Shown here piece by piece: positions 22,814-52,919 of a DNA stretch of 52,919 bases; position 1 is the first letter of the stretch, and each line of letters opens with the position of its first letter. The notes beneath the pieces were generated by a model. It saw only the letters and a program-made list of their open reading frames with translations. It was not told the DNA's origin and searched no databases. The position numbers and the translations under genes were made by a program. Where the stretch lies: positions 1 through 52,919 of the forward strand of contig JBBTTD010000006.1 in NCBI GenBank assembly GCA_038064415.1. The letters run 5' to 3'. The stretch is from Patescibacteria group bacterium (GTDB lineage Bacteria > Patescibacteriota > Minisyncoccia > Phycocordibacterales > PALSA-1337).

Positions 22814-24258
22814 TAGTTGTTAGCAACCAAATCCAAAGACCACAAAGAGAGGTCATTTTTGTTCATAAATATCAGAAAATCATCTTTTTCATCAAGACCA
22901 AGGTTAAATGCGTCAATTACACGATCTGAAGTGTCTACAATTGACGAAACCAACTTAATTTCTCCTGTGGTTGCGTTGACTTGCCAGATTTTATCAACAG
23001 TTGAAAGTGTTCCTTTATACCAATCATCCGGATAAGCTCCTTTTATTGGTTGTGATGGTACGGCGCAATACACCATTTCTTTGTAGAAGTTGCCCCAAAT
23101 ACACTTATCCGCCAATGTTCTTATAATTGCGTCAGTTCCCTTTTTGTCTTTTACATTATACACACTAGCGACAACATTTTCCGCGTTTCCCGTGGCTGAA
23201 ATTAAGACATATTTTGCATCTGTACTAACTTTTGTGCCCAAACCAGGAAGTGGACCAATAATTTTCTTCCAGATGCCGGTCTTTGGATCAACAAAATACA
23301 AATAACCACTCTCACCAGAATTTCCTTTGGTGGTAACTGCAATAGTATTATCCTCTGGCCAATCAACATTGACCTGTGTTAGTGGAGTTGTGAATATTTG
23401 AGTGACTAGTTTCCCATCAAAAGTTGCAGTGTAACCAACGCCTACCCCACTCTCATTTGTGAACATAAATACCCTATCTTTTTTTGGTGAGACAGCATAA
23501 CCAACAAGGTTTTGTGGCAGATTTTTACCTTTAAGTTCAAACGGAGTAAGTGATATTGGCGTGTTTGTTGTAATTGCTCCAATTTGGACCGTACTTGAAG
23601 CGCTGACAGTACTCGTGGCAACCTTTGGAATTATTCTAGCTTTTAATTCCGCATATATTCCTTCCATAGAATTATTTTCATCAGAAAAAGCCGAAGCCAG
23701 AAATGCCGTCAGATTTTTATTCCAACTACTCTCATATATTTTAGGGACAACTGTATTTGAGATTGTTGTTATGTCTAAGTTATCTCCACGCGCCTCGTAA
23801 ACATTACCTCTTCCCCTATCAACCCACCTAATTACAGTCACACTTTTCATTTTTGGCGGAACGGACCTTGTTGGGGTCTTGGGCTTTGTGCTAGTTGCAG
23901 TTGTTGTGGCGCTCGAAAGGCCAGAACTAGTGATTGGATCAATTATAGCGACCATTGTTGTACTTGCCCCATACCCCCCAACAGGCGTGTCACTCAAAAG
24001 TCGTAGTGTTGGGATTTTTATTTGATTGTTCTGTATTGTTGAAGTTGCAACATCTCCATTGTTGTTTGTATCACTTCCAGCCCCACCCCCACTATTACTT
24101 GGTGTCCTGCCAAATGGGGTGAAGCCGCCCGGCTGGCTGTCTGTTGAGGTTTCTATGGTAGTTGACGGGGCGCGCACGAAAAAGTACCAGTAGGATAAGC
24201 TAATGATTATAAGGATAAAGATAAAGGCGGAGGTTATTTTTAAGGAACTGTTTTTCAT
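22813..24258 (-). CDS. Membrane-anchored hypothetical protein with Thr/Ser-rich linker and beta-rich extracellular domain
   Basis: N-terminal TM segment, T/S/P-rich stretch, beta-strand-like repeats; last gene of the T4SS-like operon. Confidence 0.7.
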   Translation of the reverse strand: MKNSSLKITSAFIFILIIISLSYWYFFVRAPSTTIETSTDSQPGGFTPFGRTPSNSGGGAGSDTNNNGDVATSTIQNNQIKIPTLRLLSDTPVGGYGASTTMVAIIDPITSSGLSSATTTATSTKPKTPTRSVPPKMKSVTVIRWVDRGRGNVYEARGDNLDITTISNTVVPKIYESSWNKNLTAFLASAFSDENNSMEGIYAELKARIIPKVATSTVSASSTVQIGAITTNTPISLTPFELKGKNLPQNLVGYAVSPKKDRVFMFTNESGVGVGYTATFDGKLVTQIFTTPLTQVNVDWPEDNTIAVTTKGNSGESGYLYFVDPKTGIWKKIIGPLPGLGTKVSTDAKYVLISATGNAENVVASVYNVKDKKGTDAIIRTLADKCIWGNFYKEMVYCAVPSQPIKGAYPDDWYKGTLSTVDKIWQVNATTGEIKLVSSIVDTSDRVIDAFNLGLDEKDDFLIFMNKNDLSLWSLDLVANN

Positions 24259-51788: not shown

Positions 51789-51860
51789 GCGCCCGTGGTG
51801 AAATGGATATCATTTTTGTCTTCGGAACAAACGTTGGGGGTTCGAATCCCTCCGGGCGCA
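51789..51860 (+). tRNA. tRNA-Arg(TCG), CCA not encoded
   Basis: GCGCCCG/CGGGCGC acceptor, TTTGT-CT TCG GA-ACAAA anticodon arm, GGTTCGAATCC. Confidence 0.93.
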
Positions 51861-51864
51861 CTGA

Positions 51865-51890
51865 TGATCCGTACCCCATAAAGTGGACAC
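51865..51890 (+). mobile_element. IS3-family-like terminal inverted repeat relic, copy 1
   Basis: TGATCCGTACCCCATAAAGTGGACAC; 22/26 identical to 52868-52893; resembles IS3/IS150-type ends from memory. Confidence 0.5.
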
Positions 51891-52036
51891 AGAAACCAAA
51901 TGTCTGCAGTTTTATTTTGTTAGAATTACTAATAATTAAAAAAGTAAAGAGTAAATTCTGACGAGGATAATATTTTGTAAAATATCTTTAAGTACGCTAT
52001 ACTCTTTTTGTAATTTTTGATTAGTTTTTTTAAAAA

Positions 52037-52107
52037 GCGGGTATAGTTTAGTGGTAGAATGCGTCCTTGCCAAGGACGAGATGGGAGTTCGATTCTCCCT
52101 ACCCGCA
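52037..52107 (+). tRNA. tRNA-Gly(GCC), CCA not encoded
   Basis: GCGGGTA/TACCCGC acceptor, CGTCC-TT GCC AA-GGACG anticodon arm, GTTCGATTC. Confidence 0.95.
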
Positions 52108-52191
52108 CCGACAAATATACAGGACGAATCTATCAAGTGGGACTGTCCTTTAGATGTTCTGTACTTATTAGACGGCTTAAAATCGTGTGCT

Positions 52192-52359
52192 TGTTAATAA
52201 AACTGTGGATAACATTGTGGGTAATGGGTATAAAAGACAGAAAATATGGCTTATTATCGTAAAAATTTGTCCATAAAAGGTGTTTTTAGTGTGGATAGCC
52301 TTATTTATAGCCATTTATTAAAAACATCTATTTAAAAGTCATCGGAAGTGTGTTAATAA
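52192..52359. promoter_or_regulatory. Cluster of co-oriented DnaA-box-like 9-mers
   Basis: TGTTAATAA (52192), TGTGGATAA (52204), TGTGGGTAA (52216), TGTGGATAG (52290), TGTTAATAA (52351). Confidence 0.6.
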
Positions 52360-52366
52360 AATCTAA

Positions 52367-52744
52367 ATGCACAAAAGAGCTAAGGGAAATAAAGGTGAAG
52401 ACGTGGCTTGTAAATTCATTGAAAAGAATGGGTTTGAAATTATTGATCGTAATTATCAAAAGAAGTGGGGTGAGCTTGATATCGTCGCGACAAAGAATGG
52501 AGTTATTAATTTCTTTGAAGTTAAAAGTGTGACAGTTGATTTTTCTTTGAATTCTAATAGCCATAAACCAGAAGACAATATTGATGGATGGAAAGTTAAA
52601 CACCTACGAAGAATTATTGAGTCATATTTAGAAGAAAAGGGTGGGGGACTTGGCGTGGAGTTTAGTTTTCATGTTATTTGTGTTTTTCTGGACATGAATA
52701 CGCGAAGAGCTCGGGTAAAATGGATAAAAAACTTAATTTTGTGA
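52367..52744 (+). CDS. yraN: YraN family (UPF0102) PD-(D/E)XK nuclease
   Basis: G..GED.A..F....G..I..RNY...WGELDIVA, FFEVK motifs. Confidence 0.92.
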   Translation: MHKRAKGNKGEDVACKFIEKNGFEIIDRNYQKKWGELDIVATKNGVINFFEVKSVTVDFSLNSNSHKPEDNIDGWKVKHLRRIIESYLEEKGGGLGVEFSFHVICVFLDMNTRRARVKWIKNLIL

Positions 52745-52790
52745 AATTGTGTGCAGTTATATGAATGATATGCTACGATAGGTCAACAAA

Positions 52791-52863
52791 CGGAGCGTGG
52801 TGTAACGGCTAACATTCCTGTTTTGGGAACAGGCGACTCCGGGTTCGAATCCCGGCGCTCCGA
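52791..52863 (+). tRNA. tRNA-Pro(TGG), CCA not encoded
   Basis: CGGAGCG/CGCTCCG acceptor, CCTGT-TT TGG GA-ACAGG anticodon arm, GGTTCGAATCC. Confidence 0.95.
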
Positions 52864-52867
52864 CAAG

Positions 52868-52893
52868 TGAAATGGACCCCATAAAGTGGACAC
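52868..52893 (+). mobile_element. IS3-family-like terminal inverted repeat, copy 2 (element may continue beyond the window)
   Basis: TGAAATGGACCCCATAAAGTGGACAC; begins with TG; shares an 18-bp identical core with 51865-51890. Confidence 0.5.
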
Positions 52894-52919
52894 GGTCCGT
52901 TGGTTTCTTTTGTATAATT

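Follow-up and report, generated by a model that had tools for sequence, protein, structure and literature searches.

An IS3-family insertion sequence of Patescibacteria with probable site- and orientation-specific insertion at the 3' ends of tRNA genes

The stretch of DNA examined in this study (the window) is the 52,919-nucleotide (nt) contig JBBTTD010000006.1 of the Patescibacteria group bacterium assembly GCA_038064415.1. It is the entire contig C6 of a genome (G000) of 643 kb in 15 contigs with ~40% G+C. Three transfer RNA (tRNA) genes called by ARAGORN lie near its end on the + strand: tRNA-Arg(tcg) at 51789-51861, tRNA-Gly(gcc) at 52037-52109 and tRNA-Pro(tgg) at 52791-52864. The discriminators, A51860 for tRNA-Arg and A52863 for tRNA-Pro, were taken directly from the sequence. 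Two 26-nt repeats follow tRNA-Arg and tRNA-Pro. We consider it very probable that they are the left terminal inverted repeats (IRL) of a ~1.39-kb IS3-family DDE insertion sequence (IS), which inserts site- and orientation-specifically at the 3' ends of tRNA and transfer-messenger RNA (tmRNA) genes and is widespread in Patescibacteria.

The first repeat (copy 1, TGATCCGTACCCCATAAAGTGGACAC, 51865-51890) is separated from the tRNA-Arg discriminator by CTGA (51861-51864), and the second (copy 2, TGAAATGGACCCCATAAAGTGGACAC, 52868-52893) is separated from the tRNA-Pro discriminator by CAAG (52864-52867). Both spacers are positions 74-77 of their tRNA. A reading of the sequence alone, hereafter the original prediction, had drawn attention to this arrangement, and its description was accurate: both 26-mers start with TG, lie on the + strand and begin 4 nt past the discriminator. 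They have in common the 18-mer ACCCCATAAAGTGGACAC, whose only two exact occurrences in the window are at 51873 and 52876. Shuffled sequences, even when as many as 3 mismatches were tolerated, gave a mean of 0.04 matches, and 0/100 shuffles gave two or more. The tRNA-Gly gene between them is unoccupied, as had been stated, and serves as an internal control. Local alignment of its trailer with the element scored 16, and 161/500 shuffles scored as high or higher; a possible relic behind tRNA-Gly was dropped since this similarity is not significant.

In its 26-nt architecture, copy 1 matches the IRL of intact elements. It is followed at 51891-51950 (+ strand) by a decayed IS leader with a hairpin and T-tract, a TTTTGTTAGAAT -10-like box and a degenerate orfA-start region, where the relic ends. 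Comparison with an intact IS of the same genus (L034) gave a blastn match of 60 nt with 87% identity. The local alignment covers nt 8-110; it runs to ~nt 83, weakly to 110, and then stops. Judged by this alignment, copy 1 is an old insertion behind tRNA-Arg cut down to IRL and leader, a relic of ~85 bp. The original prediction found no transposase after it, and tblastn with OrfA and OrfB found no match in any of the 15 contigs of the genome. Copy 2 is cut off by the contig end, also as described. The contig stops inside the IS, within a leader start (52904-52919, + strand) that contains the 5' arm of a palindrome, TTTCTTTTGT..ACAAAAGAAA, and a TATAAT box at 52913-52918. Copy 2 is a recent full-length insertion at tRNA-Pro whose interior has collapsed out of the assembly.

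The missing part was recovered from metagenome contigs, as the original prediction had proposed to look for orfA, orfB and a right end beyond 52919. A scan with the IRL and leader of the window yielded four Hainich groundwater contigs. One of these, L172 (2351 bp, same population), carries the tRNA-Pro of the window (...CCGACAAG / ...CTCCGACAAG) followed by a complete element of 1388 bp with both ends and both genes. The IRL is TGAAATGGACCCCATAAAGTGGACAC and the right terminal inverted repeat (IRR) is ATGTCCACTAAATGGGGTACACATCA; the inverted repeats read TG...CA, as IS3 terminal repeats do. The leader consists of a 46-nt stretch that folds as a hairpin with a T-tract, then the TATAAT box within the palindrome. 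orfA occupies nt 73-528 of the element, with its ATG at nt 73, and encodes 151 amino acids (aa) with a Pfam HTH_Tnp_2 domain. orfB is open in the -1 frame from nt 429 to 1370 (314 codons), and its TAA stop lies within the IRR. A slippery heptamer, T-TTT-TTA, is located at nt 450 in the zero frame of orfA. The frameshift predicted from this sequence would produce an OrfAB protein of 433 aa, in keeping with the two-gene organization of IS3 elements.

The family assignment was examined using relatives of the element. OrfB of the relative L070, which is 78% identical to the population copy, scored 271 bits against the NCBIfam model NF033516 'IS3 family transposase' (cut-off 160), and contains the Pfam domains HTH_21, rve, rve_2 and rve_3, as expected of a transposase whose rve-type DDE domain is akin to retroviral integrases. 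Four relatives (L070, L074, L080 and L105) have element lengths of 1360-1389 bp. At least 118 stretches, mostly from Patescibacteria, matched the pattern when a single genome of each species was scanned, and inverted copies 1.36-1.46 kb apart bracket an orfA of ~145 aa and an orfB of ~310 aa. The length of ~1.39 kb and target-site duplications (TSDs) of 3-4 bp (CAAG, CTTG, CAC, AAG, CCA) fit the IS3 ranges of 1.2-1.55 kb and 3-5 bp. Terminal repeats of the family are imperfect and 20-40 bp long, and those of the element are ~26 bp. With TG...CA repeats, a slip site and a relative's OrfB above the NF033516 cut-off, the complete element bears out the assignment of the repeats as IS3-type ends. 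Their resemblance to IS150-type ends, also named in the original prediction, is seen in the core: the right inverted repeat (IR) of Escherichia coli K-12 IS150, TGTACTGACCCCAAAAAGTTGGACAG, contains the same ACCCCAAAAAGT(T)GGACA. OrfB is 33% identical to InsK of IS150, and no blastp similarity was detected between OrfA and InsJ. The best plasmid matches to the transposase were Bacillus genes annotated 'IS3 family transposase' (48% identity). A Pfam rve search covered 60 relatives, and the rve genes inspected (L035-L041) belong to unrelated ISs without the motif.

The ends of the element also account for several contig ends of this genome. The IRL, TGAAATGGACCCCATAAAGTGGACACggtccgttggtttcttttgtataatt, forms the end of five contigs (C2-L, C4-R, C6-R, C7-L and C15-L), and its IRR partner, TGATGTGTACCCCATTTAGTGGACATtcttgaaaccgagaacccagatctttt, forms the end of four (C3-L, C8-L, C12-R and C15-R). 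Together they mark the inverted left and right ends of a repeat present in several copies, through which the assembler failed to pass. When the genome was combined with two further contigs, L173 and the unbinned L174, 6/7 IRL junctions were located behind tRNA genes, 3-4 nt past the discriminator. The bases ahead of the IS tip are CAAG at tRNA-Pro(tgg), CCA at tRNA-Leu(caa), CCA at tRNA-Gln(ctg), CTGG at tRNA-Ser(gga), CAC at tRNA-Gln(ttg) on L173 and CTTG at tRNA-Glu(ttc) on L174. All of the IRR flanks (4/4) match an IRL flank by a duplication of 3-4 bp. C6-R ends with CAAG then the IRL, and C8-L consists of the IRR then CAAG; CTTG pairs L174 with C12-R, CAC pairs C4-L with C3-L, and AAG pairs C2-L with C15-R, the sole copy among the seven IRL junctions that is not at a tRNA. 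The duplicated bases in the three tRNA cases (CAAG, CTTG and CAC) are exactly tRNA positions 74-76 or 74-77. The left border of the TSD is constant while its length is 3 or 4. The tRNA-Glu(ttc) gene lies on the short L174 contig (3219 bp), which is bounded by the IS and has its TSD, CTTG, in common with C12-R; because the IS bounds this contig, the bin lacks tRNA-Glu(ttc).

An empty site was then sought by joining the flanks from C6 and C8 in silico and searching 93 genomes of the genus. Many of these genomes have tRNA-Pro followed, ~30-110 nt on, by a homologue of the first gene of C8 (...FFDKFED...). The match in G073 crosses the junction by 23 nt with 91% identity, and that in G078 covers query positions 128-356. 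The aligned tRNA-Pro sites of relatives have only one copy of CAAG (or CAAA, CACG) following the discriminator. Therefore, the insertion at tRNA-Pro is recent, and C6 joins C8 through the IS with CAAG as the TSD.

The original prediction had suggested that all tRNA 3' flanks of the genome be inspected for the motif and its offset. Nine of 37 tRNA/tmRNA genes carry an element, a mini-derivative or a relic at positions 74-77, always with the IRL first. Oriented positions up to 4 nt after a discriminator make up ~1e-4 of the genome, and by our own arithmetic ~0.001 of 11 copies would be expected there by chance. The mini-derivatives are IRL-IRR fusions of 44-45 bp without an open reading frame, which form perfect hairpins behind tRNA-Leu(taa), tRNA-Leu(gag) and the tmRNA gene. 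Mini-elements are located at C11:7102-7146 (tmRNA, TSD CCA), C3:58114-58157, C5:59314-59357 and C3:57050-57093. The one at C3:58114-58157 lies between the tRNA-Leu(taa) 3' end and a convergent tRNA-like 3' end (..CTGGCGCAC), such that both of its tips adjoin tRNA-type ends. The repeats of the window had been ascribed to an IS3-type element or a miniature inverted-repeat transposable element (MITE). The second term is apt for these 44-45-bp elements, which have the features of MITEs, and not for copy 1, a one-ended relic of IRL and leader.

The IRL region could itself be mistaken for something native to the tRNA gene. The segment at 52871-52912 (+ strand) is a terminator-like hairpin then GGTTTCTTTTG, with a folding energy of -12.8 kcal/mol by RNAfold and a putative terminator function. 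Outer IRL nucleotides pair with GGTCCGTT, an alternative pairing is AGTGGAC/GTCCGTT, and a consensus scan flags 52885-52901 plus the T-tract as terminator-like. Equivalent hairpins were found in most relatives, with arms that differ in sequence and keep their pairing. Such a structure is what would be expected if the motif were a native tRNA 3'-processing or termination signal, a possibility that the original prediction had named as fatal to its own reading. Integrase elements use tRNA 3' ends, and tRNA-end-like arms occur in these genomes, as would suit an integrase attachment (att) site. Against both stands the position of the motif: it forms the outermost 26 nt on either side of elements of 1.36-1.39 kb with genes for an IS3 transposase. 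The flanks are TSDs of 3-4 bp, not tRNA-derived direct repeats, and the only enzyme is a DDE transposase; the borders thus lack the direct repeats and recombinase of an integrase island. The motif is absent from orthologous tRNA-Pro trailers and from 28/37 tRNA/tmRNA genes of the genome, and the same IR type was found far from any tRNA in other phyla. The hairpin belongs to the IS, and we give almost no credence to a native signal or att site.

As part of the IS, the first ~45 nt, the outer-IRL hairpin then GUUUCUUUUG, would probably act as a replacement terminator for the tRNA gene, blocking read-through and shielding the IS. The full leader on L172 contains a second hairpin that ends just ahead of the orfA ATG at IS nt 73. 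Here the -10 box lies between the arms of the palindrome TTTCTTTTGT...ACAAAAGAAA, whose end reaches the ATG. The second hairpin may form only in read-through RNA, where it would hide the orfA start, while RNA from the internal promoter would be unable to fold it. The palindrome arms are almost invariant in 24 relatives, and covariation therefore gives no support for an RNA role. The palindrome could equally be an operator.

Targeting was then examined across Patescibacteria. Among the matches listed, 53/154 unique ends lie behind a canonical T-arm, and in 45/53 of these the IS tip is offset from the discriminator by 3-4 nt. Once ends of the sister type described below are set aside, 88 'TGA' ends remain; their 30-nt upstream consensus is gGGtT..aAtcCc.ccc.c.cC.cCa, which corresponds to T-arm, acceptor strand and CCA. 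ARAGORN recognized 14 tRNA types among 45 tRNA-adjacent ends, including 16 Ser, 5 Leu and 5 Tyr. The excess of tRNA-Ser, together with the flank logo, suggests a possible target preference for ...CCGCCA. Orientation was tested in an independent scan of the genus for an IRR-type pattern: true right ends, with the orfB tail inside, were next to a tRNA in 0/17 cases, and IRL variants abutted a tRNA 3' end in 10/13.

These numbers bear on whether there is any targeting at all. The genome is small and dense (643 kb), and sister elements also occur in the non-coding loops of terminators, so one could imagine near-random insertion with survival only in a few neutral places such as behind tRNAs. Selection cannot give single-nucleotide precision (45/53 at 3-4 nt, and a TSD that equals positions 74-76/77), nor does it fit the strict orientation (10/13 IRL-type versus 0/17 true IRR), and many other neutral trailer and spacer positions are unused. 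Survival without targeting is thus a very improbable explanation. The proposal that the element targets tRNA 3' flanks is upheld by position, orientation, TSDs, the empty sites of relatives and recurrence in many Patescibacteria.

A different kind of targeting would be homing to relics, with a transposase that inserts beside sequences like its own IRs and tRNA flanks that are chosen by way of old relics. New copies do lie 3-5 nt upstream of older IRL tips, at C3-L (CAC AA TGATCCGTACCC), L068 (CGC AA TGATCCGCG) and L179 (IRR-CAG-TGATCTGTACC); therefore, the same sites are reused. The reconstructed empty tRNA-Pro site contains AACAATCCGAATC, which weakly resembles the IRL tip (7/11 by our own count). 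The empty tRNA-Pro sites of relatives, however, have no IR-like sequence, and insertion occurs at a constant position with respect to the tRNA, whereas the spacing to relics ranges between 3 and 12 nt. Many distant lineages have insertions at this 74-77 position, in all behind at least 14 types of tRNA as well as tmRNA, and therefore each first insertion still needs recognition of the tRNA. We regard relic homing as unlikely and retain direct targeting of tRNA ends.

Truncated heads of the element are common in relatives: the IRL and leader, in some cases with ~25 initial orfA codons, are followed by unrelated genes. Three loci of the same genus (L013, L014 and L019) have heads behind tRNAs followed by restriction-modification, nucleotidyltransferase or RhuM-like genes. 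We considered these non-transposase genes as cargo of another type of element, and rejected this since the loci are truncated IS heads plus unrelated DNA. Old IS sites coincide with small variable islands at these three loci.

A sister lineage, in which the IRL is followed by GTGGACACgaaaGTGTCCACTTTTT, was identified in other genomes (L108, L113, L123, L129, L158, L192, L193 and L197). Sister elements and 56-60-bp IRL-IRR MITEs are located in the loops of intrinsic terminators, with TSDs of 3-4 bp (ACAG, ATTT, ATGA, TAT). The upstream consensus of 38 sister ends is an A-run, then a C-rich arm.

A second unusual class of flank has a box, GTTCSAAC-WTCGTCC, plus 12-13 nt of acceptor-like sequence ending in ..CCGCCA ahead of the IRL, instead of a tRNA. 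The box was found at C10 ~23316-23345 of G000, at L002, L003, L007, L021, L065, L079, L080, L092 and L095, and further at L105, L109, L150, L205-L227 and L228. L080 has an intact IS behind the box with TSD CAAG. The box occurs without any IS in 16/401 genomes of the phylum, and at L228 two inverted 290-nt copies of it flank a 3-kb restriction-like cassette. Its interpretation as an IRR/tRNA hybrid was negative, as was its interpretation as an unusual tRNA (ARAGORN with introns, and a search for the 5' acceptor strand), and no Rfam family matched the flank. If the box is a tRNA-end mimic without a tRNA body, this would argue that the last ~30 nt suffice for targeting, without the acceptor helix.

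Several observations weigh against tRNA-end targeting by a complete IS3 element as a full account. The window holds only the ends of the element, and the interior is absent from the bin, where a Pfam rve search and tblastn with the transposase of relatives gave no match. The IRL junctions at tRNA-Leu(caa), tRNA-Gln(ctg) and tRNA-Ser(gga) are without an IRR partner in the assembly, and copies at C2-L, C3:57050 and C10 are away from tRNAs. L172, the contig with the complete element, joins tRNA-Pro and the IS to the C3-L flank without a TSD, which conflicts with the C6-C8 join. We interpret L172 either as a chimera assembled across the repeat or as a recombinant of two IS copies; unlike it, the C6-C8 join is backed by a TSD and by synteny. 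The sister lineage in terminator loops, and the closely related L158, indicate that specificity is not absolute across the group. The A, B and relic classes of ends were assigned by regular-expression heuristics, and the species scan pattern is blind to A-type IRRs.

IS3-family elements transpose by copy-out/paste-in: OrfAB excises a copy as an IRR-NNN-IRL circle, which integrates with a stagger of 3-4 bp. At a tRNA gene, the staggered cut spans positions 74-76/77, the position of CCA whether CCA is encoded or not, and the IRL, and hence the start of orfA, always abuts the tRNA in the same direction. The transposase itself may recognize, in DNA form, the final ~30 nt of the tRNA gene (a T-loop-like box, the C-rich acceptor strand and NCCA), and would make its bottom-strand cut at 73|74. 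A tRNA-like 3' segment of ~30 nt seems enough as a target. A tRNA end would be a safe haven in a gene-dense genome of 0.64 Mb. We lean, by a little, toward an IS3 lineage with generic recognition of tRNA/tmRNA 3' ends, including mimics of tRNA ends, that cuts at CCA, finds a sufficient, portable landing pad in ~30 nt of tRNA-like DNA and brings its own terminator. A related idea, that the T-arm mimics an extended IRR, was prompted by a GGTTYCNAA box next to the IRR; it is unproven and was set aside, since the spacing from the tip is 36 versus 25 nt, the OrfB tail is encoded in this box as well, and sister elements are without it.

The machinery is that of an ordinary IS3 element and the target choice is unusual. 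The element resembles IS150, IS3, IS911 and IS2 in its length of 1.39 kb, TG...CA repeats of ~26 bp, orfA/orfB with a -1 heptamer, rve DDE domain and TSDs of 3-4 bp. It differs from IS150 in the modest identity of OrfB to InsK (33%) and in its HTH_Tnp_2-containing OrfA, which has no similarity to InsJ. To our knowledge, classical IS3-family members have little target specificity and are the textbook example of this among DDE elements, with the exceptions of IS1397 and ISKpn1, which target repetitive extragenic palindromic (REP) sequences, and IS911, which targets IRs. The present lineage differs from classical members by inserting at tRNA positions 74-77 in a single orientation.

IS1397 and ISKpn1 are IS3-family elements that insert in REP/palindromic units (PMC1525189). 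They and the present element have in common an IS3 transposase and a high, structure-associated specificity for a small non-coding feature, and the sister lineage in terminator-hairpin loops recalls their insertion in REP loops (PMC1525189). Here, however, the target is a tRNA/tmRNA 3' end and not a palindrome, and insertion is beside the feature instead of in a loop and is orientation-specific. The targeted insertion of IS911 next to IR-like sequences is known from work of the Chandler laboratory. IS911 is similar in that one end is placed a few bp from the recognized sequence, head to tail, and copies of the present element stack by old IRLs; the recognized sequence here is a tRNA gene end without IR similarity evident by eye.

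Retrotransposons such as Ty3 and Ty1 of yeast and TRE5 and TRE3 of Dictyostelium are guided to tRNA genes by RNA polymerase III (Pol III) transcription factors. The outcome is similar, with any tRNA gene as a safe site in a compact genome and insertion at fixed distance and orientation, but the present element is a DDE DNA transposon of bacteria, which are not known to possess transcription machinery dedicated to tRNA genes. tRNA-directed integrases and Tn7-like elements, including type V-K CRISPR-associated transposons (CAST V-K), also occupy the downstream flank of tRNAs in fixed orientation. Those systems each recognize a single tRNA, through sequence identity or a guide RNA, and depend on recombinases or on machinery of the TnsABC type, whereas the present element uses at least 14 tRNA types with no att repeat, no guide and a single IS3 transposase. 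A full-text literature search, which was incomplete in coverage, found no published account of tRNA gene ends as the target of any bacterial IS, whether of the IS3 family or another. The IS1447 paper (PMC6211511) and a paper on Patescibacteria genetics (PMC10633639) contain nothing on tRNA-end targeting.

If our reading is true, the element would be the first DNA transposon of bacteria to parallel the eukaryotic retroelements that target Pol III genes, with 'safe-haven' behavior convergent with that of Ty3 and the TRE elements. It would also imply a new protein-DNA or structure-specific mode of recognition in OrfA/OrfAB, with its HTH_Tnp_2-type N-terminus, and raises the question of how a small transposase with a helix-turn-helix and a DDE domain reads a tRNA gene. 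A compact tRNA-directed DDE system might serve for insertion in organisms whose genetic engineering is difficult. The 26-nt repeats by tRNAs, which could be mistaken for att sites of islands, are explained, and the elements and their relics would explain many contig breaks at tRNAs in metagenome-assembled genomes of Patescibacteria. IS ends make up at least 9/30 contig ends in this bin, and one tRNA gene was lost from it.

Other contig ends of the genome have different features. C10-R and C3-R have their last 55 nt in common (...GGAAGATCCGCTATGAGAAAAAGTCAAGCATTTTGTTAAGTTCGGTAGACCGTTT), and C1-R and C9-L have ~45 nt in common (CCCAGTATGAGAGAATCTACTGGGTTTTTGTATTTAGAATCG); both are assembly-breaking repeats. 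C11-R ends in a long poly-G run and a G10 run lies near C8-R, which are likely sequencing or assembly artefacts. ARAGORN also identified a type-II tRNA-Ser with anticodon ACT at C11:46-135 of G000 and at L006:1402-1489.

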